Below, piece after piece: positions 1,192 to 47,013 of a DNA stretch of 64,000 nt. Position 1 is the first letter of the stretch. Every line of letters begins with the position of its first letter. Origin of the DNA: Bacillota bacterium (GTDB taxonomy: Bacteria; Bacillota_I; Bacilli_A; RF39; UBA660). The notes below the pieces were generated by a model. That model saw only the letters and a program-made list of their open reading frames with translations. It was not told where the DNA came from and did no database searches. The position numbers were made by a program, and so were the translations under genes. The stretch lies in NCBI GenBank assembly GCA_023460995.1, contig JAEWOE010000001.1:10664-74663 (forward strand). Reading direction: 5' to 3'.

Positions 1192-1869
1192 ATGGAAAAT
1201 ATATTAAGCGTTAGTAATTTAAGTTACTATTATCAAGATGGTGATACTATAAGACATATTTTGAAAGATATAAATTTAAATTTTGATAAAGGTAAATTTT
1301 ATACCATATTAGGTGAAAGTGGCAGTGGTAAAACTACATTTCTTTCTCTAATATCTGCTTTAGAAGAGCAAAAACAAGGTAAAATTAAATATGATGGAAC
1401 TGATATTAGACAAATTGGTTTAGATAACTTTAGAAGAAATAAGATTGGTATTATATTTCAAAGTTATAATTTAATTCCTTATATGACTGCTTTAGAGAAC
1501 GTTTTAACAGCGATGTATATAACAGACAATAAAATACCAGGTAATTACAAAACAGTAGCTCTAAACCTATTAAAATACGTTGGAATAGATAATGATAAAG
1601 CCACAAGAGTTGTTAATAAACTTTCTGGTGGTGAACAACAAAGAGTTGCAATAGCAAGATCACTTTCTACAGATGTAGATATCATTCTAGCGGATGAACC
1701 AACAGGTAACTTAGATGAACAAATGTCAGATGAAATAGTTAAATTATTTTCTTCGTTAGCTCATGATCATAATAAATGTATTATTATGGTTACCCATTCT
1801 AAAGAAATAGCAGAAAAGTCTGATATGGTTTTAAGACTATATAAAGGTGTATTAAAAGAAAATGAGTAG
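1192..1869 (+). CDS. ABC transporter ATP-binding protein (MacB-type ATPase)
   Basis: Walker A GESGSGKTT, ABC signature LSGGEQQRVAIARSL, Walker B ILADEPTGNLD. 8-nt overlap with the next gene. Paralogue of 20320..20982. Confidence 0.85.
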   Translation: MENILSVSNLSYYYQDGDTIRHILKDINLNFDKGKFYTILGESGSGKTTFLSLISALEEQKQGKIKYDGTDIRQIGLDNFRRNKIGIIFQSYNLIPYMTALENVLTAMYITDNKIPGNYKTVALNLLKYVGIDNDKATRVVNKLSGGEQQRVAIARSLSTDVDIILADEPTGNLDEQMSDEIVKLFSSLAHDHNKCIIMVTHSKEIAEKSDMVLRLYKGVLKENE

Positions 1870-3094
1870 TTTTTTAGACAACTTCACAGAAGAAGAAAAA
1901 CAAGATAGTAATGGGATAAAAACAACTGAATATGAAGTAGATATAGATAAAAAGTATAAAAGTAAAAAGACTAAAAGATTAGTCATTGAAGTACTAGTTA
2001 TAGTATTTATTAGTATTTGTATAATATTTACTATAATTTATATGTCTAAAGTAGAGGTACCAAACTTTAATAATCAGTTAGTATCCATTGCAGATAAATG
2101 GGGTTCTAACAACGATATAGATATAGTAAAAAGCGAAGAATATAGTGATGAATTTTTAGAAGGATATATTATAAGTCAAAGTGTAGAAAATGGTACCAGA
2201 ATATCTAAAAAAAATAATTTAAAACTTGTTGTTAGTAAAGGACCAGATCCTGAGGAAGTAATTAAAGTACCTGACTTCAGTACTATGACAGGAGCTGAAA
2301 TTAAAAATTGGGTTAATGAAAATAAATTAAGTAATACTACTATTACAGAAAAAAACTCTACTCTAATAGAAGCCGGCAAATTAATTAGTTATACATTTGA
2401 AAGTGTTATTGTAGACAAAGAAAATTTTAGAAGAAGCGATGTTTTAAATATCATCATTTCTAAAGGTAACACCACATATGAAAAAGATATAGAAGTAATA
2501 AATTTAGTATCTAAAACAAAAGAAGAAGTTTCTAAGTGGTGTACAGATAATAATTTAATATGTAATTATGCAGAAGTGCTTTCGGAAACTTATGAAAGTG
2601 GTAAAATTGTGTCTCAGTCAGTAAAAGCCATGGAAACTATTTCAAAAGATCAAATACTTAATTTTGAAGTATCTGTAGGAAAAGGGATAATAGTACCTAA
2701 TTATTCAAATGTCACTAGTGAAAACGCAAGCAGTATAAATACAAAGTTTGATATTAAATTAAAATATGTATATAATATGGTTACTAGTTATGGAAAACTG
2801 ATATCGCAAAGTGTTAAAGCAGGTAGTAAAAGATTAGAAACAGATAATAAAATAGAACTAGTTTATTCACTAGGAAGACCATATTTTAGCAATCTAGTAG
2901 GAACAAGCGTTAGTGAAGTAGCAAAAATATTTTATGATTATAATCAAAAAGGAGTTAACTTTACTTATGAAATACTTTATGTTAACAGTGATAAAGAAAA
3001 AGGAAGTATAATTGAAACTTCTAAATCAAATGAATTTGTTACAACAAGCGAAAACATTATAATTAAAGTTAGTAACGGAGTAGTAGGTGATTAA
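1862..3094 (+). CDS. single-pass membrane protein with about 5 tandem PASTA-like domains, no kinase or PBP domain
   Basis: Short charged N-terminus, one TM (LVIEVLVIVFISICIIFTIIY), then a repeated block G(K/Y)(L/I)ISQSV..G..ISK...L.L.VSKG recurring about 5 times (PASTA hallmark 'G.VISQSP.AG..V..GS.V.L.VSKG'). Start overlaps the ATPase stop; ends 2 nt before the sigma gene. Confidence 0.55.
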   Translation: MSSFLDNFTEEEKQDSNGIKTTEYEVDIDKKYKSKKTKRLVIEVLVIVFISICIIFTIIYMSKVEVPNFNNQLVSIADKWGSNNDIDIVKSEEYSDEFLEGYIISQSVENGTRISKKNNLKLVVSKGPDPEEVIKVPDFSTMTGAEIKNWVNENKLSNTTITEKNSTLIEAGKLISYTFESVIVDKENFRRSDVLNIIISKGNTTYEKDIEVINLVSKTKEEVSKWCTDNNLICNYAEVLSETYESGKIVSQSVKAMETISKDQILNFEVSVGKGIIVPNYSNVTSENASSINTKFDIKLKYVYNMVTSYGKLISQSVKAGSKRLETDNKIELVYSLGRPYFSNLVGTSVSEVAKIFYDYNQKGVNFTYEILYVNSDKEKGSIIETSKSNEFVTTSENIIIKVSNGVVGD

Positions 3095-3096
3095 TA

Positions 3097-3882
3097 ATGA
3101 GAATAAAACTAAATACAATTTTTGAGTTGCTTAGAAACTATGATACTTATGGTTTTGAACTACTTTACGAAAATTATTTTAGATTAATGTATGGTGTTGC
3201 TTTTTCTATTAGTAAGAACGATGAAACGAGTAAAGACGCAATTCAAAATACCATGTTTAATTTATACAAACTTGACTGTAATAAGTTTCCTACCAATAAT
3301 GAATTAAGCTGGCTTTACAAAGTAGTAAAAAATGAAACATTACAGCTTCTTAGAAAAGAAAAGGCAAAAATATCTATTGATGATATTGCGGAATTACCTG
3401 ATCTTAACAACGATATTAATTTAGTTGTAGATATGGATTCTTATGAACAGTTAGTTATGCAACTAAATGATCGGCAAAGAAAAATAGTAACTTTAAAAAT
3501 TGTCAGTGGTTTAACTCATAAAGAAATATCAGAAATGTTAGATATTCCTCTAGGTACAGTAATGTGGAGTTATAATACATCAATAAGGAAACTTAGACTT
3601 GTTCTTAGTGGATTAACTTCTGTGTTCTTATTAAGCTTAGGAACCGTCTTATATAGGTTATTTGATGCAAAAACAAAGGTAAGTCCATTAATAAGTGAAT
3701 CATATACTACTCTAGAATATTATCCATCTAGTAAAGTAGGTGGAAGTACAGAAATCGTAAGTAATTTTAATATAGATATAGTTTTATATATAATTATGAT
3801 TGGTATGCTAATTTCATTTATATTATTATTTATCAAATCTGATAAAATTCCTAACAGAACTCTTTACAAAAGAAATAGATAA
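3097..3882 (+). CDS. RNA polymerase sigma-70 family (ECF-like) factor with C-terminal membrane anchor (2 predicted TM helices)
   Basis: Region 2-like block (YENYFRLMYGVAFSISKNDETSKDAIQNTMFNLYK) and canonical region 4 HTH (LNDRQRKIVTLKIVSGLTHKEISEMLDIPLGTVMWSYNTSIRKLR), followed by hydrophobic helices LTSVFLLSLGTVLYRLF and IVLYIIMIGMLISFILLFI. RBS GTAGGTGA 6 nt upstream of the ATG. Confidence 0.6.
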   Translation: MRIKLNTIFELLRNYDTYGFELLYENYFRLMYGVAFSISKNDETSKDAIQNTMFNLYKLDCNKFPTNNELSWLYKVVKNETLQLLRKEKAKISIDDIAELPDLNNDINLVVDMDSYEQLVMQLNDRQRKIVTLKIVSGLTHKEISEMLDIPLGTVMWSYNTSIRKLRLVLSGLTSVFLLSLGTVLYRLFDAKTKVSPLISESYTTLEYYPSSKVGGSTEIVSNFNIDIVLYIIMIGMLISFILLFIKSDKIPNRTLYKRNR

Positions 3883-3978
3883 GCATTATTATTAAAATAC
3901 ATAATATGAACGGTAGTAGGTTAGGGGACTTTACTTAAATTAAAACATATTGTTATTTTTGATTTAAGTAGATATTTT

Positions 3979-3999
3979 AAGACTTTATAAGTCTTTTTT
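3979..3999 (+). terminator. weak rho-independent terminator after the sigma-factor operon
   Basis: Inverted repeat aagact-ttata-agtctt followed by TTTT. Confidence 0.35.
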
Positions 4000-4076
4000 G
4001 TTATCATGATACAAAAAGTATTTACAAAAAAAATTTATAAATATATAATTAATATTATTAATGGGGGAAAAATATA

Positions 4077-4630
4077 ATGAGTTTTAACACAGAAATAGCT
4101 GAAGAAATATCAAAAATGCAAGAAGATGCATTATTTATTATTGATAATGAGATAGTAGAAATTTATTATAAGTTTATTTCTTATATTCCTGAAAAATGGA
4201 ATATATCTAAGATACTTCAAAAAAGTTCAGTAGATTTATCGGTACAAGAAATAGATATTTTAAAACAAATAAAAATTGATAATAATAATAGTGAAGTGTT
4301 TTTAGAATATTTAAAAAATATTTTGATAAAAATTCAATAGAAGATTTAGCTAAACTAAAATTAACGGATGAGGAATATAATCTTTGTATTAACAATATAA
4401 AAAAATATTGTATTTTTCCAACTGAAGAGTTAAATGTTATAGTAAACGATTTAAGTAAAAAAAATTGCAATGATAGATCTATATTAGAAGAATTTATATT
4501 ACATGAGCTAAGATCAATATTATTTGCTAGAAATATAAAAAAATTATCTAATGATATTGATACTAAAACAGAAAAAAACTTTCAGATGCGTTATAAAAGT
4601 TCTATATATGTTCAAAAAAACAGTATTTAA
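4077..4630 (+). pseudogene. hypothetical gene split by a frameshift at an A6 tract (4313-4318); possible pseudogene or phase-off state
   Basis: ORF 4077..4340 stops at TAG; the +2 frame is open from 4295 to about 4630 (…YFDKNSIEDLAKLKLTDEEYNL…VQKNSI). One extra A in AAAAAA at 4313-4318 would fuse both into an approximately 185-aa protein (EYLKKYFDKNS…). Confidence 0.35.
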
Positions 4631-4725
4631 TTACTGAATATAATATATATTATGTTAACTTCTTGAAATAAAAACATTTTGTATATTTAATTAATTATTG
4701 CCAATACTATTATTGGGTGATTAAA

Positions 4726-4941
4726 ATGAGAAAGAATAATAATTCAAAACAGTCTACAACAACAAGTAAGTCTAGCAATAATAGTCAAGTAACTAATAAG
4801 AAATCTAACAACGTTACAAATAAAAATTCAAATAATGTTACAAATAAAAAAAGCGATGTTGGATTCGTTACTGACAATGCTAATTCTTTCAGGTATGATC
4901 CTGAAGAAGAACATTCCTTCGACGTAACTGATTGTAGATAA
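4726..4941 (+). CDS. small low-complexity Asn/Lys/Ser/Thr-rich protein with 3 x 24-nt tandem repeats
   Basis: ATG at 4726 with RBS GGGTGA 5 nt upstream. Imperfect 24-nt repeats 4786..4857 encode (S/N)NNVTNK(K/N)S. Imperfect hairpin plus T-run downstream. Confidence 0.3.
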   Translation: MRKNNNSKQSTTTSKSSNNSQVTNKKSNNVTNKNSNNVTNKKSDVGFVTDNANSFRYDPEEEHSFDVTDCR

Positions 4942-5372
4942 CCCAGAAAGAGACGGCTATTAGCCCCTCTTTTCTTTTTTTCATTTTTAATGACAAAACG
5001 AGATTGAGAACTATGCAACTTTATATATGTCGGTGCACCAGGATGCGCCTTCTTTTTATTATATATATATCGTCTATATATGTAGTATATAACAGTAATT
5101 ATATTATTTTAGTTAATAAGCTTATATTTAGAAAAACTAACGACTTCATGATGTATTATCATTTTAAATATATAAAAAGAAAAAAGGGGACTTCCCCTTT
5201 TTATTTTAATTTATTATATTTTTCATAAAAAATTATTTTTTTACTGATTTAGTTATTCTAATAATTATAAAAAAAAACATATATCATTTCATAATTACTT
5301 TTATAATCAAATATATGTTTATGATAGATATAAAATATTGTAAGGTTGAAATTGTAGTATCTCTCCCCTAGC

Positions 5373-5606
5373 CTATTTTAATTTCTTTTTTTCAAAACCA
5401 TTTTTTCCTAAATCAAAACCGTTTAATTGCATTTTTATAATAATATGATTGATGTCAGTATCTTTTAAACCTAGATTTTTGAAATCTTTTCTTTTTAACA
5501 TGCATATGTCTTTTATCTTGCTTAATTTGTTAGATTTAAGTAACATCTCAATTTCGTTAGAAATATTTAATATTTTAATATCGTCAGTGTTGTACAACGT
5601 ATCCAT
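5373..5606 (-). CDS. small helix-hairpin-helix protein (RNAP alpha-CTD-like fold, tentative)
   Basis: RBS AGGAG 7 nt upstream of the ATG at 5606. Sequence ILNISNEIEMLLKSNKLSKIKDICMLKRKDFKNLGLKDTDINHIIIKMQLNGF resembles HhH / RpoA C-terminal-domain architecture. Lies immediately downstream of the CarD-family gene. Confidence 0.4.
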   Translation of the reverse strand: MDTLYNTDDIKILNISNEIEMLLKSNKLSKIKDICMLKRKDFKNLGLKDTDINHIIIKMQLNGFDLGKNGFEKKKLK

Positions 5607-5632
5607 AATTTTACTCCTGTTATTATCTATAC

Positions 5633-6127
5633 CTATTTTTTTAATTCTTCAACTTTATTATGAACATATTTCTTTGTTTGTTCGTAAGATAAGCCTAGTA
5701 CAATAGAAAACTCATTATATAGAGATTGCTCTGCTAATTTAAGATAATTAGTATCTGTTGCTCCAGCCTTTTTTCCATCAATTATTTTCGTTTCATTTCG
5801 TAAATAAGCTGTCTTAATTATTCTAATTAAGTCTTCATGTTTACCAGTCATAATTAAATCTTTATAAATATAAATAATAGGTTTGTTACCAATACTATTT
5901 ACTTCTTCAATATTAGGTATGTTATTAATTAAACTTTCTACTTCCTGCTTTGTCATAATAGATCTAATAATACCATTTTTATCTTCGACAGGTAGTGAAA
6001 TAGTAAGAGATTCGTCTTCAATTGGACTCAATATATAATAATCCATATCCCCATAGTACTTTTCTTTAATTTCTTTAACTTTACAAATGTTTTTTTTGAA
6101 GACCACATATTCCCCTTGTTTAAACAT
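5633..6127 (-). CDS. CarD/CdnL family transcriptional regulator
   Basis: N-terminus MFKQGEYVVFKKNICKVKEIKEK matches the CarD_CdnL_TRCF N-terminal motif. Start moved to the ATG at 6127, which has RBS GGAGGTG 6 nt upstream (the ORF track begins earlier at a non-ATG). Confidence 0.7.
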   Translation of the reverse strand: MFKQGEYVVFKKNICKVKEIKEKYYGDMDYYILSPIEDESLTISLPVEDKNGIIRSIMTKQEVESLINNIPNIEEVNSIGNKPIIYIYKDLIMTGKHEDLIRIIKTAYLRNETKIIDGKKAGATDTNYLKLAEQSLYNEFSIVLGLSYEQTKKYVHNKVEELKK

Positions 6128-6146
6128 AAAATACACCTCCTCTAAT

Positions 6147-6192
6147 AGAAAAAGAGTAGTTTGCAACTGGACTTACGCCTGCAAAGCTACTC
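6147..6192 (-). terminator. rho-independent terminator downstream of deoB
   Basis: 12-bp stem gagtagctttgca / tgcaaa(g)ctactc with a 14-nt loop, followed on the minus strand by a TTTTTCT run. Confidence 0.5.
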
Positions 6193-6312
6193 GTTGTATT
6201 TATATTATACCATTTTTTATAGTTAAATGTAAGTCAAACCTTCCAATTATCGAATTATAACGTATTGTTATACCTGTTTAACATAATCTAAACTAATAAT
6301 AAAGATGAAATG

Positions 6313-7509
6313 CTACTTTAATTTACTTAGAAAACTAGTTCCTACTGGAGCATTAACTTTAAAATTATCTGCTATAGTTGCTCCTAGATCTGCAAATGTA
6401 GCAAGTTCATCTAATTTCTTAGGTTGTTTTAAACTAGATGAATATACAAAAACTGGTACATCTTCTCTAGTATGATCAGTTCCTTTAAATGTGGGGTCAT
6501 TGCCATGATCTGCAGTTATAATAAGTAAATCATCGTCATTTAAATGCGCTAGAATATGTGGTAGTGCTTCATCAACTTCTCTAAGAGCATCACCATATCC
6601 TTTGACATCTCTTCTATGTCCATATTTGCTATCAAAATCATTTAAATTAGCAAAACATAATCCTGTGAAATCTTCATGTAGTTTTTTCATGAAGCTTCTA
6701 ATGCCTTCAGTATTATCACCAGTATGAGTACTTTCAGTAATTCCACAGTCATTAAAAATATCTGCAATTTTACCTATTGATATTACATCTAAATTATTAC
6801 TTTTTAAATTATCTAATACAGTATTATTAACTGGATCTAAGGCATAATCTTTTCTGTTTCCAGTTCTTACAAAACTACCAGGATTACCTGTAAATGGTCT
6901 AGCTATGATTCTTCCAACTTTCCATTCTTCATTTAATGTAAGCTGTCTTGCCATTTCACATACCTTATATAATTCTTCTAATGGAATAATGCTTTCATGT
7001 GCTGCGATTTGTAATACTGAATCGGCAGAAGTATACACGATAAGAGCACCAGTTGCAATTTGTTCTCTACCTAATCTTTCAATTATTTCGGTCCCTGAAG
7101 CATTGCAATTACCTATAACTTTTCTACCACTCGCTTCTTCTAATGCAGTTATTAACTCTTTAGGAAAACCAGTGTTAGTATAGGTTTTAAAAGGAATTTT
7201 AGTAATAATACCCATCATTTCTAAATGACCTGTTAAAGTATCTTTACCATTACTTACTTCCCTAGCTTTAGTATAATAACTCATTGTTGGAAAATTAGTA
7301 TTATTTACAATATTAAATAACCCAAATTTAGCAAAATTTTTATACTGATGTGTAGTGTTATCAATAACATGTTTTAATGTATGGGCCCCTTTATCACCAA
7401 AATCAGCTGCATCTCTAGCCTCCCCTGCCCCTACTGAATCAAGTACAACTAGAAATATTCTTTTAAACCTATATGTTTCTTTTCTTTTTCCAAAATTAAA
7501 AATTCCCAT
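6313..7509 (-). CDS. deoB: phosphopentomutase
   Basis: RIFLVVLDSVGAGEARDAADFGDKGAHTL… matches the DeoB N-terminus. Start set at the ATG 7509, which has RBS GGAGG 6 nt upstream. Lies 1 nt downstream of the xerD stop, the same gene order as ripX-drm in Bacillus. Confidence 0.85.
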   Translation of the reverse strand: MGIFNFGKRKETYRFKRIFLVVLDSVGAGEARDAADFGDKGAHTLKHVIDNTTHQYKNFAKFGLFNIVNNTNFPTMSYYTKAREVSNGKDTLTGHLEMMGIITKIPFKTYTNTGFPKELITALEEASGRKVIGNCNASGTEIIERLGREQIATGALIVYTSADSVLQIAAHESIIPLEELYKVCEMARQLTLNEEWKVGRIIARPFTGNPGSFVRTGNRKDYALDPVNNTVLDNLKSNNLDVISIGKIADIFNDCGITESTHTGDNTEGIRSFMKKLHEDFTGLCFANLNDFDSKYGHRRDVKGYGDALREVDEALPHILAHLNDDDLLIITADHGNDPTFKGTDHTREDVPVFVYSSSLKQPKKLDELATFADLGATIADNFKVNAPVGTSFLSKLK

Positions 7510-7510
7510 C

Positions 7511-8425
7511 TTATTCCTCCCTACTATGCGGATGTGATTCATCATAGTTTTTTCTTAACTTTTCTGTCGCAACGTGTGTATATATACCTGTCGTTGATAA
7601 ATTAGAGTGTCCAAGCATTTCTTGAATACTTCTTAAATCAGCTCCATTATCAAGTAAATGTGAAGCAAAAGAATGTCTTAATGTATGAGGTGATAATTCT
7701 TTATTAATATCCTTTTCTTTTACTAAAGCTTTTAATATTTTAAAAAAGCCTTGCCTCGTCATCCCTAACCCATGATTATTTAAAAACAATTTATCGCACA
7801 CTCTGTTTTTTAGCATACTGATTCTGTATTCTTCTATATATGTTTTAACCGAATCACGAGCATAATCTCCAATAGGTATAATTCTCTCTTTATTTCCTTT
7901 ACCTATAGTTCTTACTATATCACTATCTAGATTAATATCATTTATATTTAAGTTTATTAATTCACTAACTCTAAGACCTGATCCATACATAAGTTCAAGC
8001 ATTGCCTTATTTCTGGCTGAAAAACTATCAACTATTTTAATATCTAATAGGCTGTCTATTTCATCTAAGGATAGAACATTAGGTAAAGATTTAGTTATCT
8101 TAGGCAGTTCTATTTTATCCATTGGATTGTAATTCATTCTACCAGTTATATTCATGTATTTATAAAAAGTTTTTAAGGATGATATATTTCTAGCAATAGT
8201 TTTATTGTTTATTTTTTTAATATCTAAATATTTTAAGTAATCGAAAACATTGTCATCAGTTATTTTTTCTGGTTTTATTTTTAAATATAATAGAAACTTT
8301 TTAATATCTTCAATATAAGATAATTTAGTGTTATCACTATATTTTCTATCAATTAATAAATAAATAGAAAAATCATCAAGAATAGGTTTTATTTCTTTAT
8401 AAAATTCTTTTTCAACCACTTGCAT
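7511..8425 (-). CDS. xerD: site-specific tyrosine recombinase XerD
   Basis: C-terminal catalytic region RHSFASHLLDNGADLRSIQEMLGHSNLSTTGIYTHV (R..H..R..Y motifs). Size 304 aa. Sits upstream of deoB. Confidence 0.8.
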   Translation of the reverse strand: MQVVEKEFYKEIKPILDDFSIYLLIDRKYSDNTKLSYIEDIKKFLLYLKIKPEKITDDNVFDYLKYLDIKKINNKTIARNISSLKTFYKYMNITGRMNYNPMDKIELPKITKSLPNVLSLDEIDSLLDIKIVDSFSARNKAMLELMYGSGLRVSELINLNINDINLDSDIVRTIGKGNKERIIPIGDYARDSVKTYIEEYRISMLKNRVCDKLFLNNHGLGMTRQGFFKILKALVKEKDINKELSPHTLRHSFASHLLDNGADLRSIQEMLGHSNLSTTGIYTHVATEKLRKNYDESHPHSREE

Positions 8426-20319: not shown

Positions 20320-20982
20320 CTAGTTAGTATCTTTTAATTTGCCTTTTTCAAGTAAGAATAGCTGGTCGACATGTTTTTTTACATTAGGTGAATGTGATAC
20401 GACAATAACGCATTTCTTTTCATTATGAGCAAGATCTTTTAAGATATTTATTATCTCATCTTCATTATCTTTATCTAGATTACCTGTTGGCTCATCGGCA
20501 AGAATAATTTTCGAATCATATGAAAGTGCTCTAGCAATAGAAACTCTTTGTTGTTCACCACCAGATAATTGTAATACTCTTCGTTTTGCTTTATCTGTAT
20601 CTATACCAACTTTTTCAAGTAGTCTAAGGGCTTTATCTTCTTTGTTATCTTCTTTAATACCACTTATATTCATTGATAGAATTACATTTTCTAAGGCTGT
20701 ATATTGTGGTAATAAGTTATAACTTTGAAATATAATTCCAACTGCACTAGAGCGATATCTTTCACGGCTAATAAAATCAACATCTTGTCCTTCATATAAT
20801 ATAGTACCATTCTTTGTTTTTTCTAAACCAGCAAGTAAGGAAAGAAGAGTTGATTTTCCTGCCCCACTTTTTCCATATATACCATACATAATACCGTTTT
20901 CAAAGTTCATGTTTATATCTTTTAAAACGAATCTTTCTCCATCATATGTAAAATTCAAATCTTTTATTTCTAGTATTGCCAT
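20320..20982 (-). CDS. ABC transporter ATP-binding protein (MacB-type)
   Basis: GKSGAGKSTLLSLLAGLE Walker A, LSGGEQQRVSIARAL, ILADEPTGNLD. Paralogue of 1192..1869. Confidence 0.85.
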   Translation of the reverse strand: MAILEIKDLNFTYDGERFVLKDINMNFENGIMYGIYGKSGAGKSTLLSLLAGLEKTKNGTILYEGQDVDFISRERYRSSAVGIIFQSYNLLPQYTALENVILSMNISGIKEDNKEDKALRLLEKVGIDTDKAKRRVLQLSGGEQQRVSIARALSYDSKIILADEPTGNLDKDNEDEIINILKDLAHNEKKCVIVVSHSPNVKKHVDQLFLLEKGKLKDTN

Positions 20983-20987
20983 TTCTT

Positions 20988-22523
20988 CTACCCCCTATTT
21001 TGCAGTATCTTATTTGGTTCATATTTATTTACAAACATAACAGCTGTTATACCACTTATTATTGTAAGAAGTAAACTTACTCCAAATAACTGTGCTATTG
21101 TGATTAAATCTGTGTGAACTTCAAGTGATGATACATAATCATCAGCGCTTATAGTTGTAGGAGCGCTAGCCTCTGGTCTTGAAGAATTTTCGCTTGAATT
21201 TGAAGAATTAGGTCCACCATTAAATCCAGGTCTTGAGAATCCTTCTCCCCCAAAGTTTTCATTTATATTACTTTGACTTGTAGTATAACTTTCTATTTCA
21301 CTTGAAAGCATATAATTACTTACTGGTTGTGATAAAACAGTTCCTGCTGTTGTACCAACTACTAGAGCAATTAAAGCCACCATAAATATTTCAGAAACAA
21401 GCTGCAAAGTTACTTTGCTTTTAGTCATACCAATTGCTCTTAAAACACCAATCTCATACTTTCTTTCTCTAATATTAAATAGGTTAATGATTGTAAGAAC
21501 AATACCTCCTACTACTAATATAACAATTAAGAATGTAAATGAAAAACTAGCAATGCTTTTAATTGGTTCTAAAGTGGCAGTTATTTCATCTTCATTAGTT
21601 CTAATATTATAGTAATCACTAACACCTAAATCTCTAACAGCATCAGTAAATTTATCTAAATCTTCATAAGCTATATAAAAATTAGATGTAATACTATTAG
21701 ACATTGAATATGAAGTTGTTTCAGTACCATCATCTTTTACTATTTGATTTAATACAGATATATTAGTATAAATTTGATTACTACTACTTCCTTGCATTCT
21801 GCCTGGCATAGAACTAGTAGTATCATTAACTATTTCATATATTCCTACTATTTCATAGTTATAAGTAATTGCTTCATCATTAGTATTTATAAAATTTACT
21901 GTATCTCCAACTTTTAAATCATTTTCTTCAGCAAGTTCTTCGCTAATAACGATTACATTTTCAGTATTACTTTTGTCTATCATTGAACCATCAATAATTT
22001 TCTTATTTCCATCAACAAAATCTTCGTCATAAGATATATCAGAATAAGCAATTATAGTATAGTCTCCTGATGAAAAAGACATTCTTCCTCCACCGTCATT
22101 AGGTACTTGTCTATTAGTAGAATTAGTACTATTTGTACTTGAATCCTCACTCTCACTTGGTTTAGTAAATAAATCATCATAACTAATAGGCTCAATATCA
22201 TCACTGTTTAGACTACTTTGAACTGTGTAATAATAACCAGTTACCATATCTAGATTTCCTATTTCATTAATAGTATCAACAGTAAGTAACTCAAAAGTTT
22301 CTTTTTCTTCATCTGTTGCATTTCTATATGACATAGTATCTAGATTTAGGGATGCTTCTAGTGGATTAGTTTCTCTGTAAGTGTCTACTAAAGCATTACC
22401 AGACTTATTAATAGTAATAGTTATACATGCACCAAGAGTAATAGCCATAATAATTAATCCTATTAATACATTTCTTCCTTTTGCTCTAGTAATATTTAAA
22501 TAAGAATTTTTAAATATATACAT
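20988..22523 (-). CDS. ABC transporter permease, FtsX/MacB family with large extracytoplasmic domain
   Basis: N-terminal TM, about 300-aa Ser/Thr-rich external domain, C-terminal FtsX helices (FNIRERKYEIGVLRAIGMTKSK). Confidence 0.8.
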   Translation of the reverse strand: MYIFKNSYLNITRAKGRNVLIGLIIMAITLGACITITINKSGNALVDTYRETNPLEASLNLDTMSYRNATDEEKETFELLTVDTINEIGNLDMVTGYYYTVQSSLNSDDIEPISYDDLFTKPSESEDSSTNSTNSTNRQVPNDGGGRMSFSSGDYTIIAYSDISYDEDFVDGNKKIIDGSMIDKSNTENVIVISEELAEENDLKVGDTVNFINTNDEAITYNYEIVGIYEIVNDTTSSMPGRMQGSSSNQIYTNISVLNQIVKDDGTETTSYSMSNSITSNFYIAYEDLDKFTDAVRDLGVSDYYNIRTNEDEITATLEPIKSIASFSFTFLIVILVVGGIVLTIINLFNIRERKYEIGVLRAIGMTKSKVTLQLVSEIFMVALIALVVGTTAGTVLSQPVSNYMLSSEIESYTTSQSNINENFGGEGFSRPGFNGGPNSSNSSENSSRPEASAPTTISADDYVSSLEVHTDLITIAQLFGVSLLLTIISGITAVMFVNKYEPNKILQNRG

Positions 22524-22612
22524 ATTGTATCTCCTTTCATATTAATAATATAAATATTGTGTGAAAATAAAATGGAGGATAAATGTTATTTTAGTGAAGA
22601 AAAAAAGGATGA

Positions 22613-22861
22613 CTAAATCATCCTTTTTAATAAGTATATCCATATACATAAAAATATAGGCTCTAATAGTGCAAATTTAAGTTTTTTTGTCTTATGTCTA
22701 AATATATACATCCCTATAATAAAACCTAAACAACCACCTATAAATGATAAAAATAGCAGGATATTCTCTGGTACTCTATATTTGTGTTTAATAGCCATAA
22801 GTTTATCATAACCACATATAATAAAAGCTATAAAATTAATAGTTATTATATAATATATCAT
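22613..22861 (-). CDS. DUF1294-like small membrane protein
   Basis: FIICGYDKLMAIKHKYRVPENILLFLSFIGGCLGFIIGMYIFRHKTKKLKF matches the DUF1294 signature as I recall it. Confidence 0.45.
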   Translation of the reverse strand: MIYYIITINFIAFIICGYDKLMAIKHKYRVPENILLFLSFIGGCLGFIIGMYIFRHKTKKLKFALLEPIFLCIWIYLLKRMI

Positions 22862-24327
22862 TTGTTACTTTTATTAACTTCAAACCAGAAAGTAGTACCT
22901 TTATTAATTATAGAATCTACACCATATTTTAATTTATGGTTAATTAGTATATTTTCTACTATAGATAGACCTATACCAGTACCAATTTTATCTCGCTTAT
23001 GAGTTTTATCAACCTTGTAATACTTCTTCCAAATAAGTTTAATTTCTTCTTTTTTAATTCCTTTACCAGTATCTATTATTTCAATTCTAGCACTACTATT
23101 ATCATCATCAATAATGTTTATAGTAACTTTTTTATCACTACCAGTATAATTTACCGCATTATTAAGTAAATTATATACAACTTGCTCAATACGAAGTTGA
23201 TCAGCACTTATTAATAATTCTTTATTATAATTAAATATAAAAGTATACTGACTATTTTGTTCAAGAATGCGATATCTTCTAAGAACATTCTTGATTAAAT
23301 CTGTGATATCGAAAGTAGTAATATTTAAACTCTTTGTTTTAGACTGAAGTACAGACAAATCTAAAATATCATTAACAAGAACATTTAAACGATCAGTTTC
23401 TTCAATAATTACGTTTAAGTTTTCTTCTCGCTTTTTTTTGTCCTTATATGTTAAATCACGAACCATTTCCGCATAAGCTTTTATCATTGTAAGAGGTGTT
23501 TTTAAATCATGACTAACATTAGCCATAAGTTCTCTTCTAAGTTCTTCTGTTTTACTAAGTTCTTTTGTCGTTATGTTTAAAGTATTAACTAAGTTATTTA
23601 ATTCATCTATATCTTCATCTATATAAAATCTTGTGTCATAATCGCCTTTACTCATTTTAGTCGCACTTCTATTAATTTTTTCTATAGGTTTACTTATTCT
23701 TTTAGAAATAAAGAAAGCTACTATAAATGAAAGAAGTAAAACTACAAAAGTAACTATAACAAGTTGATGCTGAAGTATCCCTATTGCTGAATCAAGTGGT
23801 TCTAAAGAAGTACTCACAAAGGCATATGTATTAGTATTTAGTTTAATTGCTCTTATTAATACTTCATTATCATACCTTGGATTAATAAGTTTATATGTTT
23901 CTTCATCAAGTAAACTATTTATAAATGCTTGCTTATAATCTTTTACAGTTTGATCAGGAAGACAACCTCTATTAAAAGAAGTTGAATCATATACAATCGC
24001 ATTATTAGTAATTATTTGGATGCATATACCATTATCTCTCGCTACTGCATCAATAGTATTATACAAAGTGTTATTTTCATAGGTTGATTTTATTGTAGTA
24101 ATTGTACTTCCTATCTCTTTTACTTTAGCTCTTTCATAAAAACTATTTAGGAATAATATTTGGAATATCCAAAGAAAAAGTAAAATCAAAATAGAAAAGA
24201 TTATTAAATATGACCATATTTTAAATTTTAAACTATTTGTTTTTACTTTTTTTATTCTATTAAAGATATCTATAATACTATCTTTAATATTATTTATTTT
24301 TAACTTCAAATTTGTATCCCATACCAC
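22858..24327 (-). CDS. two-component sensor histidine kinase (TM-HAMP-HisKA-HATPase)
   Basis: H-box HDLKTPLTMIKAYAEMV, N/G boxes (IIDTGKGI, GTGIGLSIV), two TM helices flanking an extracellular loop. Track start is a GTG overlapping the response-regulator gene by 38 nt; the true start is uncertain. Confidence 0.8.
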   Translation of the reverse strand: MVWDTNLKLKINNIKDSIIDIFNRIKKVKTNSLKFKIWSYLIIFSILILLFLWIFQILFLNSFYERAKVKEIGSTITTIKSTYENNTLYNTIDAVARDNGICIQIITNNAIVYDSTSFNRGCLPDQTVKDYKQAFINSLLDEETYKLINPRYDNEVLIRAIKLNTNTYAFVSTSLEPLDSAIGILQHQLVIVTFVVLLLSFIVAFFISKRISKPIEKINRSATKMSKGDYDTRFYIDEDIDELNNLVNTLNITTKELSKTEELRRELMANVSHDLKTPLTMIKAYAEMVRDLTYKDKKKREENLNVIIEETDRLNVLVNDILDLSVLQSKTKSLNITTFDITDLIKNVLRRYRILEQNSQYTFIFNYNKELLISADQLRIEQVVYNLLNNAVNYTGSDKKVTINIIDDDNSSARIEIIDTGKGIKKEEIKLIWKKYYKVDKTHKRDKIGTGIGLSIVENILINHKLKYGVDSIINKGTTFWFEVNKSNK

Positions 24328-24952
24328 GAACAGTAGTTATTAAGTCTCTATATTTTCCTAAATTATTTCTTAATTTTTTAATATGTGTGTCAACAGTACG
24401 ATCATCACCAAAGAAACTATACCCCCATAATTTACTTAAAATGGTTTCACGCGATACCGCAATATTTTTATTTTGAACTAAATAGCATAATATTTCGTAT
24501 TCTTTCGGTGTTAATTTTAATTCTTCATCATCAACACTAACAGTATGTCCAGCATAATTAATAACAAGTGTTTCAAATTTAAACTCATCTGATACGGCAT
24601 TTCTTTTACTTACCGCTTTTATTCTAGCCATTAATTCTTTTGGACTAAATGGTTTAGTCATATAATCATCTATTCCAAGTTCAAATCCAACTAACTTATC
24701 ATATTCTTCTTTTCTAGCTGATAAAATGATTACTGGAATACTTTTAATCTTTTTAATTTCTTTACAAGCTGAAAATCCATCTAAATTAGGCATCATAACA
24801 TCTAATACCACTAAATCTATATTATTATTTCTAACCATTTCTATAGCTTCTAAGCCATCACTAGCCTCAAAAATATGATATCCTTCGCTTGCTGAATATT
24901 CTTTTATAACATTTCTTATTAATGTTTCATCATCAACTATTAATATGTTCAT
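24290..24952 (-). CDS. OmpR-family response regulator
   Basis: MNILIVDDETLIRNVIKEY…DVMMPNLDG receiver, C-terminal winged-helix (TVRGMGYKF). Confidence 0.85.
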   Translation of the reverse strand: MNILIVDDETLIRNVIKEYSASEGYHIFEASDGLEAIEMVRNNNIDLVVLDVMMPNLDGFSACKEIKKIKSIPVIILSARKEEYDKLVGFELGIDDYMTKPFSPKELMARIKAVSKRNAVSDEFKFETLVINYAGHTVSVDDEELKLTPKEYEILCYLVQNKNIAVSRETILSKLWGYSFFGDDRTVDTHIKKLRNNLGKYRDLITTVRGMGYKFEVKNK

Positions 24953-25016: not shown

Positions 25017-27074
25017 TTATTTATTATAATATGAAGTAATCGTTTCACTAACACTTTTCATAAAATCTTCTTTATATTTATCAATAAAATCTAAATCAGT
25101 TTGACTAGTTATATATCCTAATTCTAAAATATAACTTTCTAGACCTCGATTAGAATTTACATATGGATTAGCATCTTCATCATCTCTACCATCAACATAT
25201 GCTCCTGCCATATATCCACCAGTTTCTCTTATAATAAAATAATAATTTGTACTTAAACTTACATCAAATGGTTCAAAGTCTTTCTCATCAGCTTCTTTAG
25301 CAAGATTGTTTAAATCTGTTCCATTAAATGTTCTAGTATAAATACCTGATTCAACTTTCTTAAATGGATTATATGAATAAGTAAACTCACTTACTTTATC
25401 AAGTCCTGAAACTAAACTTCTTGCAAATTCATAATCTATATTATTAGAAGTATATAATTCAAAACCATTTTGAACTACATCACTAGCGTTTAAATGAATA
25501 GAGATTAACATTTTAGCATTACTTTCATAAGCTTTTGTTACTCGTCCGTCTTTACCATATTTATCTATCCACTCATCTTTTGCCCTTGTTAAGGCTACTT
25601 TAAAACCAGCATCTTCTAAATCTTCTTTTAATAAATTAGATAGTGCTAATGTATAATCAGTTTCACACTTTTTATTATAACAAGCGCCTGCATCTGAACC
25701 ACCATGACCTGGGTCGATAATAACATCATAAACTTCATCAGTCGATTTACTAATATTAACGGCCATACTATGATATTTTGATTCATCTTTAATAATAAAC
25801 TTTTTACTTACATTATCATCAGATATACCATAATATGTTGTATCATCATAATCGGTAGTGTTATCTAAAGCATAATATAAACTTTCTTTATCAGCAACAA
25901 CCTTAATAAGTAAAATATAATTATCTATTATCATATTGTCTAATAAAAAGCCTGTATTTAAAGAGTCAGTTATATAAAAATTTACCTTGTTGTTATCAAC
26001 AGTGTATTTCAAATCATATTCTACATTATTGTCTCTACCTATCATAACAAGATTAACATCACTAACGTTATCAGCATCTACATCTAAATTGCCTTTTAAA
26101 TTCATATGGTTTCCATAAATATATAATTCATTAATTGTTGCTTTGTTATCTTCTGTTGGAATTAACACTTCATTATGTTTAGGAAAAACCCTTAATAACA
26201 GATATCCTCCTAATGCAAGTATTGCTATTAGTAAGACAATTTTAATAATACTTAGTAGTGCTTTGAAAAAAGCAAATTTTTTAGTATCTCTTTTTTTTAT
26301 ATCATGAAATTTAAACATGTCTGGGTCTTTATCTTTTTTCTTTTCTTTAATTATTGTTTTGTTATAAGAATTATTATATAGATTAGCAATATCATTTCTT
26401 ATTTCTTCTTTTTTAGGTTCTTCTATTTTAGAAGATAAATCCTTTTCAAGTTTTAACAATTCTCTTTTTTCTTTTGCAAATTTCGAATATTTACAACCAC
26501 AGTAATCTTGACGATATAAGTCATATTCCTTTGCAAGTTCAACACTTCTTTTATAACCATTTTTCTTCTTGAAATCAGCATATAGATATTTAGTGCCAAA
26601 TTCTTTTTCTAATTCTTCACCAATTTCATTTAATTTATTACTATTTTTATAAGGGCTAACCGATAAAGTAGTTGTAAAATAATCAAAATCGTGTTCTTTT
26701 GCATATTTAGCAGCAGCTTCCATACGAAGTCTATAACAAATAAAACATCTATTACTTCCTTCAGCATCATTTTCGTGTCCTTTTATTATACTTTCAAATT
26801 CTGTATTATCATAATGTTCTATAACACAATTAACTGGATTTTTTGTTTTAAAAGTGCTAAGAAACTTTTTCATTTCATTAGCTCTTCTATCAAATTCTTC
26901 ATATGGTTCTATGTTAGGATTGTAGTAATATATTGTAATTTCAAAGTAATTAGCTAGGTATTCTATACAGTAACTAGAACATGGTGCGCAGCAAGCATGT
27001 AGTAGTAACTTAGGAGTATCTTCTTTCTCAGATACTTTTTCTAGCATTTCATCTAGTCTTTTTTGATAATTCAT
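25017..27074 (-). CDS. fusion protein: epoxyqueuosine reductase QueH domain (N-terminal) - TM segment - N-acetylmuramoyl-L-alanine amidase (Amidase_3) domain (C-terminal)
   Basis: N-terminal LLLHACCAPCSSYCIEYL…SVSPYKNSNKLNEIG…YRQDYCGCKYS (DUF208/QueH Cys motifs). Linker with TM FAFFKALLSIIKIVLLIAILALGGYLLL. C-terminal DVIIDPGHGGSDAGA…LSIHLNAS typical of the MurNAc-LAA amidase_3 family. Single uninterrupted 685-aa ORF. Confidence 0.55.
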   Translation of the reverse strand: MNYQKRLDEMLEKVSEKEDTPKLLLHACCAPCSSYCIEYLANYFEITIYYYNPNIEPYEEFDRRANEMKKFLSTFKTKNPVNCVIEHYDNTEFESIIKGHENDAEGSNRCFICYRLRMEAAAKYAKEHDFDYFTTTLSVSPYKNSNKLNEIGEELEKEFGTKYLYADFKKKNGYKRSVELAKEYDLYRQDYCGCKYSKFAKEKRELLKLEKDLSSKIEEPKKEEIRNDIANLYNNSYNKTIIKEKKKDKDPDMFKFHDIKKRDTKKFAFFKALLSIIKIVLLIAILALGGYLLLRVFPKHNEVLIPTEDNKATINELYIYGNHMNLKGNLDVDADNVSDVNLVMIGRDNNVEYDLKYTVDNNKVNFYITDSLNTGFLLDNMIIDNYILLIKVVADKESLYYALDNTTDYDDTTYYGISDDNVSKKFIIKDESKYHSMAVNISKSTDEVYDVIIDPGHGGSDAGACYNKKCETDYTLALSNLLKEDLEDAGFKVALTRAKDEWIDKYGKDGRVTKAYESNAKMLISIHLNASDVVQNGFELYTSNNIDYEFARSLVSGLDKVSEFTYSYNPFKKVESGIYTRTFNGTDLNNLAKEADEKDFEPFDVSLSTNYYFIIRETGGYMAGAYVDGRDDEDANPYVNSNRGLESYILELGYITSQTDLDFIDKYKEDFMKSVSETITSYYNK

Positions 27075-45290: not shown

Positions 45291-46229
45291 CTATTTATTT
45301 TTTTTATTATCAATAATATTCTTTGCTATGTATATTGGTCTTTTTTTAGTTTCAACATATGTTCTTGCAATATATTCACCTAATATACCTAGTGAAAATA
45401 ACTGAAGCCCGCCAAGAAATAATATTAATACTACTATTGTAGCATAACCTGACACTGAAATACCATAGAAAATTTTCTCAAATATTACACTAATTAAGTA
45501 TAAAATAGATAAGATTGAAGAAGTCATACCAATAAATGTTGCCATTCTAAGAGGTGCAGTACTAAACGATACAATACCTTCTATTGCATATTTAAATAAT
45601 TTTGTAAAAGACCAAGTACTGTTTCCATTAGCTCTTTTGCTAACTGTATAAGGCATATAATATGTGTTATATCCCACCCATGAAAATATTCCTTTAGAAA
45701 ATCTAAAATATTCTTTCATTGATAAAATAGAATCAACCATACCTCTTCTAAAAGTTCTAAAGTCACTAGCACCTTGTACAAATCTAGTATCAGACATTTT
45801 ATTCATTATTTTATAAAAACAATCTTTAAAGAAAGTTAATACTTTACCTTCTTTTCTTTTTTCTTGATAAGCTGCTACTGAATCATAATCTTCATTATTA
45901 TCAAGAAATTCAATCATGCTTAAAACTAGTTTAGGATCTTGTTGCATATCGGCATCAATAATTGATACATAATCGCCTATAGACTTCTCAAGTCCAGCGT
46001 ACATAGCCGCTTCTTTACCAAAATTACGTGAAAAATTAATAACCTTGATATTTTCTTTAGAATTCTCACTAAGCTCTTTCAATACTTTAAAAGTATTATC
46101 CTTAGATCCATCATTAATAAAAATCATTTCGTAATCTTTAATTTTTTTAAAATTAGTATGTATACAGTCATATATTAACTCTATATTTTTTTCCTCGTTA
46201 TAACAAGGCACTATAATTGATAATTTCAT
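45291..46229 (-). CDS. second GtrB/CsbB-like family 2 glycosyltransferase
   Basis: LSIIVPCYNEEKNI…MIFINDGSKDNT…NFSRNFGKEAAMYAGL plus 2 C-terminal TM helices. Confidence 0.75.
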   Translation of the reverse strand: MKLSIIVPCYNEEKNIELIYDCIHTNFKKIKDYEMIFINDGSKDNTFKVLKELSENSKENIKVINFSRNFGKEAAMYAGLEKSIGDYVSIIDADMQQDPKLVLSMIEFLDNNEDYDSVAAYQEKRKEGKVLTFFKDCFYKIMNKMSDTRFVQGASDFRTFRRGMVDSILSMKEYFRFSKGIFSWVGYNTYYMPYTVSKRANGNSTWSFTKLFKYAIEGIVSFSTAPLRMATFIGMTSSILSILYLISVIFEKIFYGISVSGYATIVVLILFLGGLQLFSLGILGEYIARTYVETKKRPIYIAKNIIDNKKNK

Positions 46230-46324: not shown

Positions 46325-46352
46325 AAAAAAAGGACAAAACTGTCCTGATTTT
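46325..46352 (-). terminator. rho-independent terminator (minus-strand T7 run)
   Basis: aggaca-aaac-tgtcct hairpin flanked by A7 (plus) / T7 (minus). Confidence 0.45.
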
Positions 46353-47013
46353 TCTGTTGAAATCGATGGCCATAAAACAGTAAACTTTGCGTCTTAGGTC
46401 AAGTTGTATTTCACCAGTTTCTCCATACACGTTACCATGTATGTGGTTCCCCTTTAAAGAAACCGATACGGCGTCGCCTATCCGTACGACTTGATTACCA
46501 CTTAGTACGCACTGCAATCCTGTTATATGAGACACTCTAGGAGATTTCCCCACCAACTGATTCATTATTAATTCTTTTTTGCAAATACAGTTTCAGATTG
46601 CGATTTTCAAATTAGTCTAGCTAAAACTAATTCAAAATGGATCAATCATTCCAAGTAATTCACTCAAGACAAGCTACACTACTCGTAACTTTCGCCACAT
46701 AGTAGGTTTAATCCTAATTCGTAGTAAGTCAGCTCAATATGCAATATATGTATATGCTTACCACAAGTATAGGTCTCCACGAATACAGGGTCATGAGCGC
46801 ATGCCATTGCGGATGCCCAATATTCTATCCTTCAGCATCCACCCCAAACTGGGCGTAAGAAGCAAACACCAAAGGCTTCACAGATATGCTCTTTAATGGT
46901 TTTTTAATCCCATCTTCATAATAAATCTCATTGACTAGAATAATGTGCCAATCAAAATTTACAAGATTAATTCTATCATATTATATGCATGATGTCAAAT
47001 TGCAATGACTACA
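46353..47013. other. GC-rich (about 45% vs about 27% background) non-coding island, 660 bp; candidate structured ncRNA or foreign DNA remnant
   Basis: No ORF longer than 82 codons in any frame. Composition sharply different from the flanks. Lies between the polysaccharide deacetylase gene stop and the 46325 terminator. Confidence 0.3.

Follow-up and report, generated by a model that had tools for sequence, protein, structure and literature searches.

The 410-amino-acid (aa) protein considered here is encoded near the start of a 64,000-nucleotide (nt) stretch of Bacillota DNA, hereafter the window, which spans positions 10,664–74,663 of the forward strand of contig JAEWOE010000001.1 (assembly GCA_023460995.1; genome 26% GC). 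It is a membrane-anchored protein made up of PASTA domains only, five in number, and its gene follows those for the permease and the ATPase of a MacB-type ATP-binding cassette (ABC) transporter in an arrangement that is conserved well beyond this genome. We consider it slightly better than an even bet, with a probability of about 0.55, that the PASTA protein belongs to a type VII ABC cell-envelope stress module as its dedicated third component. It may be a working subunit instead of a sensor.

The open reading frame (ORF) occupies positions 1862–3094 of the plus strand, as given by the first-pass annotation, which had described about five PASTA repeats without a kinase or transpeptidase domain, carried on a cytoplasmic stub of about 35 aa and one transmembrane (TM) segment. 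Pfam, NCBIfam, AlphaFold2 and Foldseek agree on both the repeats and the missing catalytic domains. In the Pfam scan the protein matched PASTA (PF03793) in five stretches (96.9 bits against a cutoff of 23.2, E=6.8e-28), and no kinase, transpeptidase, penicillin-binding protein (PBP) dimerisation or other domain was found besides. The NCBIfam model NF033483, which describes the Stk1 PASTA kinase, was matched at model positions 311–500 of 563 only (118.9 bits against a cutoff of 450), that is, over the juxtamembrane, TM and PASTA regions, the kinase part being left unmatched. When the five segments were scanned singly, PASTA was the top family for each, and the scores, listed below, indicate that repeats R1 and R3 are canonical and R2, R4 and R5 divergent.

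The AlphaFold2 model, built with 35 homologues, has a mean predicted local distance difference test score (pLDDT) of 83.3 and consists of a helix (residues 30–61) followed by five alpha+beta modules, each with one helix packed on a three-stranded sheet, at about residues 63–125, 133–200, 209–271, 277–336 and 340–404, which account for the entire ectodomain. In a Foldseek search of the PDB the best 31 matches, including all 25 at E<=0.001, were PASTA domains, among them those of S. aureus PrkC, M. tuberculosis PknB and PonA2, StkP, PBP2x and S. aureus PBP1; the only PDB matches by sequence, 3m9g and 3py9, are to the PASTA region of S. aureus PrkC. Big or SH3 folds, the beta-rich alternative envisaged at the outset, were absent from those 31 matches, and a non-PASTA fold for the repeats is ruled out by Pfam, AlphaFold2 and Foldseek. 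The short tail and single TM helix likewise stand, the tail measuring 39 aa and not about 35. Since it ends in a K/R-rich stretch (KKYKSKKTKR) ahead of one TM helix, the topology read from the sequence is N-in, PASTA-out. The sequence contains no lipobox, sortase signal or cleavable signal peptide, and neither Pfam, AlphaFold2 nor Foldseek revealed features of an HlyD/MacA-type membrane-fusion protein (alpha-hairpin, lipoyl or beta-barrel domain) in a protein that holds only PASTA modules. Its parts, all on the plus strand, are as follows.

1862–1978, +: cytoplasmic tail, residues 1–39, with motif 1 (MSSFLDNF), motif 2 (GIKTTEYEVDIDKKY) and a K/R-rich stop-transfer stretch

1979–2047, +: single TM helix, residues ~40–62, hydrophobic run LVIEVLVIVFISICIIFTIIYM

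2048–2254, +: PASTA repeat 1 (R1), residues 63–131, 39.9 bits

2255–2485, +: PASTA repeat 2 (R2), residues 132–208, divergent, 19.6 bits over model positions 1–41

2486–2683, +: PASTA repeat 3 (R3), residues 209–274, 33.0 bits

2684–2875, +: PASTA repeat 4 (R4), residues 275–338, 22.4 bits, first half of a conserved distal di-domain

2876–3094, +: PASTA repeat 5 (R5), residues 339–410 and stop codon, 19.6 bits, best-conserved segment of the family

The gene is the third of an operon running from permease through ATPase and PASTA protein to a sigma factor fused to TM segments (sigma-TM), so that the neighbours are those named by the first-pass annotation, a co-operonic ABC transporter and a tethered sigma factor.

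1–1180, +: MacB-type ABC permease, 3′ part (residues ~104–480), frame open from base 2; Pfam MacB_PCD and FtsX

1192–1869, +: ABC ATPase of the MacB/LolD/FtsE type, 225 aa; Pfam ABC_tran, E=6e-34

1843–1869, +: translational-coupling junction, with Shine–Dalgarno AAAGGTG at 1843–1849, PASTA start codon ATG at 1862 and ATPase stop codon TAG at 1867–1869

1862–3094, +: PASTA protein, 410 aa, ATG start; ORF and Pfam PASTA

3097–3882, +: sigma factor of the extracytoplasmic function (ECF) type (sigma2 and sigma4, residues ~1–168) with a C-terminal two-TM hairpin; Pfam and NCBIfam

The permease gene is cut by the start of the window, its 5′ end lying upstream; the complete gene, encoding 480 aa, was recovered on an identical contig (L004, 5877–7319). 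A terminator-like hairpin precedes it, 3′ of an unrelated helix-turn-helix gene, and an Rfam scan covering the window and L004 gave neither a riboswitch nor a leader ahead of the operon. The PASTA start and the ATPase stop share 8 nt, the overlap reading ATGAGTAG, and the Shine–Dalgarno sequence of the PASTA gene lies inside the ATPase gene, 12 nt ahead of the start.

This arrangement of permease, ATPase and PASTA protein, hereafter the trio, recurs throughout the family. Permease and ATPase genes stand immediately upstream in every locus for which an intact PASTA 5′ end and upstream sequence were available, about 28 loci among the relatives of the window. Many of these are strain-level replicates, so that the independent evidence amounts to some 15 lineages below 65% identity. 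The trio was also found in nine of nine distant lineages (L042 and L044–L051), in which PASTA identity falls to about 27–35% and GC content ranges from 24 to 52%, with the ORFs intact; two of these are cultured, Enterococcus termitis (L045) and Alkalihalobacillus hemicellulosilyticus (L051, reached from the permease), and another (L050) has two permease genes. Most loci have the 8-nt overlap between ATPase stop and PASTA start, and in 16 loci, again over 24–52% GC, an AAAGG(A/T)G Shine–Dalgarno sequence lies 12–14 nt before the PASTA start, inside the ATPase gene. In the reverse search, from the permease, a homologue of 33% identity (that of L051) still has a PASTA partner, and homologues of 24–25% identity, in Lactiplantibacillus brownii (L052) and in a second module of the window described below, have none; the link thus marks a distinct permease subfamily. 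In E. termitis (3861–7584) the trio is inserted in the otherwise highly conserved rpsB-tsf-pyrH-frr / uppS-cdsA-dxr-rseP-proS cluster, between frr and uppS and so directly before the gene for undecaprenyl-pyrophosphate synthase.

The stand-alone PASTA architecture is not rare; it defines a large family that is generically annotated. A first search with the window protein gave 396 relatives, all of them PASTA-only, and one started from a 34%-identical relative added 382 more, including proteins of E. termitis or Enterococcus crotali (WP_025868822.1) and of metagenome-assembled genomes (MAGs) of Clostridia and Eubacteriales. A profile search of 1.84 billion cluster representatives returned 1025 proteins at E<=1e-30, and about 100 of the best 150 matches, which represent clusters at 50% identity, are 410–580 aa long and align end to end. 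Databases label these proteins 'PASTA domain-containing protein', 'hypothetical protein' or, wrongly, 'serine/threonine-protein kinase' (JGI), and NCBIfam holds no dedicated model for either the PASTA protein or the permease. Giant proteins of 1000–3300 aa with 10–30 PASTA-like stretches (P0215–P0220, P0228, P0234, P0252, P0276 and others in the representative library) score like true members. They have signal-peptide-like N-termini in place of the MSxFL tail and may constitute a class of their own among surface proteins with PASTA arrays.

The cytoplasmic tail carries two motifs that are found family-wide, down to 27% identity. The first, at the very N-terminus, is M-[SA]-[SDN]-F-L-x-x-[FIL], often lengthened to MSDFLSKFxxxNY, and occurs in about 95 of 137 further 50%-identity cluster representatives. 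The second, juxtamembrane, is G-I-x-x-x-E-H-E-x-x-[IV]-D-x-x-Y. In alignment A1 the residues S2, S3, F4, L5, F8, E10, G18, I19, D29 and Y32 are conserved at >=90%. The linker between the motifs is variable, and the tail as a whole ranges from 29 to about 150 aa. At the other end of the protein, the membrane-distal repeats R4–R5 are the best-conserved part of the family; mean column conservation is highest in R5 (0.84 in A1, 0.62 in A4), and the R4+R5 unit is tandemly duplicated in relatives of 562–713 aa.

The transporter itself can be placed with some precision. The permease, with 4 TM helices and, between TM1 and TM2, a large MacB-like extracytoplasmic domain (ECD), gave an AlphaFold2 model (pLDDT 82) that matches MacB, LolC/E, Spr0695, YtrF, YbbP, HrtB, the YknZ ECD and BceB, and FtsX is absent from its top 50 structural matches. 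The relatives of the ATPase in NCBIfam and the PDB are of the Lcn972 type, DevA, LolD, FtsE, MJ0796, the nucleotide-binding domain (NBD) of MacB, and YtrE, with BceA also among them. Together these matches identify the transporter as a type VII, mechanotransmission-type ABC system. The label of lactococcin-972-type exporter ATPase, the top NCBIfam hit, was rejected and is not used as evidence, because its 190 bits fall short of the cutoff of 254.85 and about equal the scores of DevA, LolD and FtsE.

The second envelope module of the window occupies 20320–24952 on the minus strand and comprises a response regulator (24290–24952), a histidine kinase (22858–24327), an 82-aa membrane protein, a permease (20988–22523) and an ATPase (20320–20982). 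Its ATPase is 52% identical to that of the PASTA-linked pair and its FtsX-type permease 25%, and a long loop between TM3 and TM4 is common to both permeases. The gene that follows it encodes a DHH protein and not a PASTA protein.

In contrast to the trio, the regulators differ from one clade to another. Two clades were distinguished, clade A, to which the window belongs (56–100% identity), and clade B (47–52% identity). The sigma-TM gene downstream of the trio is confined to clade A loci. Its product matches Pfam Sigma70_r2, r4 and r4_2 as well as NCBIfam TIGR02937 (sigma70-ECF; 62.4 bits vs 42.9) and is an ECF (group 4) sigma factor with sigma2 and sigma4 regions only, extended by an atypical C-terminal stretch of 90 aa with hydrophobic segments at ~170–190 and ~226–246. 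Conservation is strong in the sigma part; in the TM part it is weak and confined to hydrophobicity and a C-terminal SDK motif. Such a tethered sigma might become active by proteolytic release or work at the membrane. Neither Pfam nor NCBIfam recognised an anti-sigma domain in this fusion. The element CCAATAAAA-N14-GCATCYAAAT occurs once per clade A locus, 40–70 nt upstream of the permease start and past the terminator, and is invariant among loci whose proteins are only 54–60% identical; it is probably the ECF-type promoter of the operon. A search of the window for other members of such a regulon gave no occurrence.

Clade B loci have, upstream of the trio, genes for a 183-aa ECF sigma factor and a 206-aa single-pass protein, which is taken to be its anti-sigma, preceded by a TGTAAG-N16-CGTTA promoter. 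The sigma factors of the two clades share 31% identity over just 51 residues, and the C-terminus of sigma-TM showed no similarity to the clade B anti-sigma, of which it might have been a fused homologue. In some clade B strains (L024, L025 and L027–L031) the sigma and anti-sigma genes have been lost, a remnant of the anti-sigma 3′ end being still visible, and the trio is intact. These strains have a perfect TTGACA-N17-TATAAT promoter about 200 nt upstream of the permease start, and just upstream of it two direct repeats CTGAAATCGGT, the second ending within the −35 hexamer, which could be an operator. Elsewhere, an OmpR-type response regulator and a histidine kinase are encoded upstream (L044, L047), or no regulator adjoins the trio (L042, L045, L048–L051). 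The tail motifs are kept whatever regulator is present.

The constancy of the trio beside such variable regulators indicates that the conserved partner of the PASTA protein is the ABC transporter and not the sigma factor; as a conserved partner the latter is ruled out, given that regulators differ among clades and that the two sigmas are barely related. The initial idea that a signal is relayed through the co-operonic transporter and/or the tethered sigma factor thus fares unevenly. Action through partners is reasonable and the transporter is conserved; the tethered sigma is confined to clade A, and a relay as such is only one possibility. With both the trio and the tail motifs constant whatever the regulator, a dedicated transporter subunit or partner is the most economical reading.

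In one abundant human-gut species the module is polymorphic, with intact, permease-frameshifted (L007, L013) and deleted alleles, from which it follows that the module is accessory and dispensable. The deletion alleles (L039, at 5733–7083, and L016, L019, L020 and L022) have lost the sigma and anti-sigma genes, those for the permease and the ATPase, and about 38 codons from the start of the PASTA gene, so that a fragment of a metallo-beta-lactamase-fold gene now adjoins the TM+PASTA remnant.

Physical association of the PASTA protein with the transporter, its ligand and a resistance or stress function are what we infer from these observations, along the following lines. The PASTA protein would sit beside the MacB-type permease and the ATPase in the membrane, where its tail motifs may dock on the cytoplasmic face of the transporter, at the NBD or the permease N-terminus. 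The rod of five PASTA domains would project into the wall, and the membrane-distal, most conserved R4–R5 pair could there bind a ligand derived from peptidoglycan, for instance a stem peptide, a muropeptide or lipid II. The PASTA arm might then direct the ATP-driven work of the transporter to sites of cell-wall precursors, or gate the ATPase on wall ligands. In this genome the membrane-tethered ECF sigma factor would drive the operon from the conserved non-sigma-70 promoter, and sigma-TM, one of several interchangeable regulators, would control the module without receiving a signal from the PASTA protein. The module as a whole would be an inducible, dispensable envelope-stress or antimicrobial-resistance device, like BceAB-BceRS, HrtBA-HssRS and YtrEF. 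In this respect, passages of PMC8060467 and PMC12772383 describe the B. subtilis type VII transporter YtrEF as affecting wall thickness and its operon as induced by lipid II-cycle inhibitors. The likeness to these three systems lies in a type VII ABC transporter that is genetically coupled to envelope-stress regulators (two-component systems in L044 and L047, ECF sigmas elsewhere) and is accessory and inducible in character. In contrast, BceB has 10 TM helices where the permease considered here has four and a MacB-like ECD, and none of the BceAB, HrtBA and YtrEF systems has a PASTA subunit.

Several points weigh against the proposal of a dedicated third component. Gene adjacency and translational coupling show co-expression, not interaction, and the trio has no genes for antibiotics or bacteriocins linked to it. 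Scanned singly, R2, R4 and R5 score under the Pfam cutoff, and residues 1–25 of the tail that would make the contact with the transporter are modelled at a pLDDT below 50 and are thus disordered in the AlphaFold2 model. Frequent loss within a species could mean that the module is costly or only marginally useful. Finally, PASTA domains can also mediate protein–protein contacts, as between PBP2B and DivIB (PMC7654742).

It is tempting to carry the proposal further. The trio may, as a more tentative suggestion, represent a kind of tripartite type VII ABC machine not previously recognised in Gram-positives, in which the PASTA rod replaces the membrane-fusion protein and ATP-driven mechanotransmission is coupled, via the tail motifs and a PASTA array embedded in the wall, to the recognition of lipid II or newly made peptidoglycan. 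Such a machine could possibly serve as a 'target-protection' device, shielding lipid II from wall-active antimicrobials, or as a wall-ligand-gated ABC motor. MacA-MacB, Spr0693-0694-0695 of S. pneumoniae and YknXYZ of B. subtilis resemble the trio in combining a type VII permease and an ATPase with an N-terminally anchored extracytoplasmic partner. They differ from it in that the partner here is a PASTA rod with cytoplasmic motifs and not a member of the HlyD family, and in the gene order, which is permease, ATPase, partner.

Alternatively, the PASTA protein may sense signals outside the cell and control the tethered ECF sigma factor in the manner of an anti-sigma or co-anti-sigma, with the ABC transporter as the regulated output. 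The sigma-TM gene begins 2 nt after the PASTA stop, both products are membrane-anchored, so that contact between their TM segments is possible, sigma-TM has no recognisable anti-sigma partner of its own, and the clade B operon also holds an ECF sigma/anti-sigma pair. That pair, however, includes clade B's own anti-sigma, and its sigma is barely related to that of clade A. The tail of the PASTA protein, of just 39 aa, contains no anti-sigma domain recognised by Pfam or NCBIfam, although it could conceivably contain a novel short anti-sigma motif. Moreover, the tail motifs are kept where a two-component system or no regulator adjoins the trio, and strains that have lost sigma and anti-sigma and gained a sigma-70-type promoter still keep the trio intact. 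We therefore regard this explanation as unlikely; signalling to the tethered sigma could be an addition peculiar to one clade, and cannot be the general mechanism of the family.

A morphogenetic role is likewise doubtful. Here the trio would be an FtsEX-like system regulating peptidoglycan hydrolysis or synthesis in growth or division, with the PASTA protein as a wall-bound adaptor comparable to EnvC, PcsB or SweC/D. PASTA domains bring the kinases and class B PBPs that carry them to the places where wall is synthesised, which would suit such an adaptor, as would the position of the E. termitis trio between frr and uppS-cdsA-rseP. FtsEX with EnvC, PcsB, CwlO or RipC is moreover a type VII ABC system acting on the wall via an extracytoplasmic partner, and the transporter of the trio has the type VII fold. 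Its closest structural matches, however, are MacB, LolCE, Spr0695 and YtrF, with FtsX missing from the top 50. No hydrolase gene is conserved beside the trio across the loci examined, and the partner, unlike those of FtsEX, is neither a hydrolase nor a hydrolase activator. The linked regulators are of the stress type, and broken or deleted copies of the module are frequent within a species, in contrast to what a core division function would imply.

It is improbable that the PASTA protein is merely what the transporter handles, a substrate or a wall-anchored product that it puts in place. The presence of LolC/E among the best structural matches of the permease would fit this explanation, as transporters of the LolCDE type extract membrane-anchored proteins, and the giant PASTA proteins suggest structural surface roles for PASTA arrays. 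Nevertheless, so close a translational link to the ATPase suggests that the two are assembled together in stoichiometric amounts, a cargo extracted outwards would hardly be expected to keep motifs in its cytoplasmic tail, and lipobox, sortase signal and cleavable signal peptide are all missing.

Least probable of all is that the protein is a functionless remnant of a PrkC/Stk1-type kinase with a fortuitous ABC neighbour: the closest relatives of its repeats are kinase PASTA domains (PrkC alone in the PDB by sequence), the NCBIfam PASTA-kinase model (PknB_PASTA_kin) covers the juxtamembrane, TM and PASTA regions and JGI labels family members as Ser/Thr kinases, but about 100 clusters at 50% identity aligned end to end, ORFs intact over 24–52% GC, N-terminal motifs specific to the family and absent from the kinase-model match, and conserved synteny and Shine–Dalgarno sequence largely refute it.

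Shared ancestry with the ectodomains of kinases is nevertheless likely. Like the PASTA Ser/Thr kinases (PrkC/Stk1, PknB, StkP, IreK), whose structures are the closest matches (3m9g, 3py9, 2kui, 5e12), the window protein is an N-in single-pass protein with an extracellular PASTA array. In StkP and PknB the distal PASTA domain is the functional one, and in the family of the window protein, too, the distal repeats are the best conserved. Unlike these kinases, it has no kinase domain and has instead a 39-aa tail with family-specific motifs, and its gene is coupled to that of an ABC ATPase, not a PP2C phosphatase. With the class B PBPs (PBP2x, PBP2B, SpoVD, S. aureus PBP1) it shares the PASTA fold; in contrast to them it lacks transpeptidase and pedestal, and its PASTA domains directly follow the TM helix instead of forming a C-terminal appendage.

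The PASTA-only, membrane-anchored architecture is already known, under a generic name, in the databases. Two features, the tail motifs and the obligate link with a MacB-type transporter, are apparently undescribed, as we could not find them in the open-access literature or in curated family libraries. The open-access literature yielded no link between PASTA and MacB, FtsX or ABC proteins and no stand-alone PASTA protein, an absence that is weak evidence, and the paper re-classifying ECF sigma factors does not mention PASTA.

The closest relatives of this genome found here are MAGs of uncultured Bacillota or Bacilli. A single 685-aa ORF at 25017–27074 (minus strand) combines an epoxyqueuosine reductase QueH domain (residues 23–198), a hydrophobic segment and an Amidase_3 domain (451–565), an odd fusion; the N-acetylmuramoyl-L-alanine amidase domain shows that the organism makes peptidoglycan. 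A full-length OLE RNA (Rfam RF01071; 377.6 bits against a gathering score of 50) lies at 46350–46967 on the minus strand, and just downstream of it the ORF at 45291–46229 (minus strand, 312 aa) could be a candidate OapA.

Research on PASTA domains has dealt almost exclusively with those attached to Ser/Thr kinases and class B PBPs, and the mode of action of MacB-type ABC transporters in bacteria without an outer membrane is poorly understood. A PASTA-only protein coupled to a MacB-type transporter joins these two fields, and the hypothesis can be addressed in cultured hosts. For annotation, the family members now called Ser/Thr kinases should have their labels corrected. If the trio is a new class of tripartite machine as suggested above, PASTA domains would have a further setting in which to function, the third after kinases and PBPs. 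Should the module protect against antimicrobials that target lipid II, it would constitute a new resistance determinant, one found widely among gut Bacillota and differing from strain to strain.

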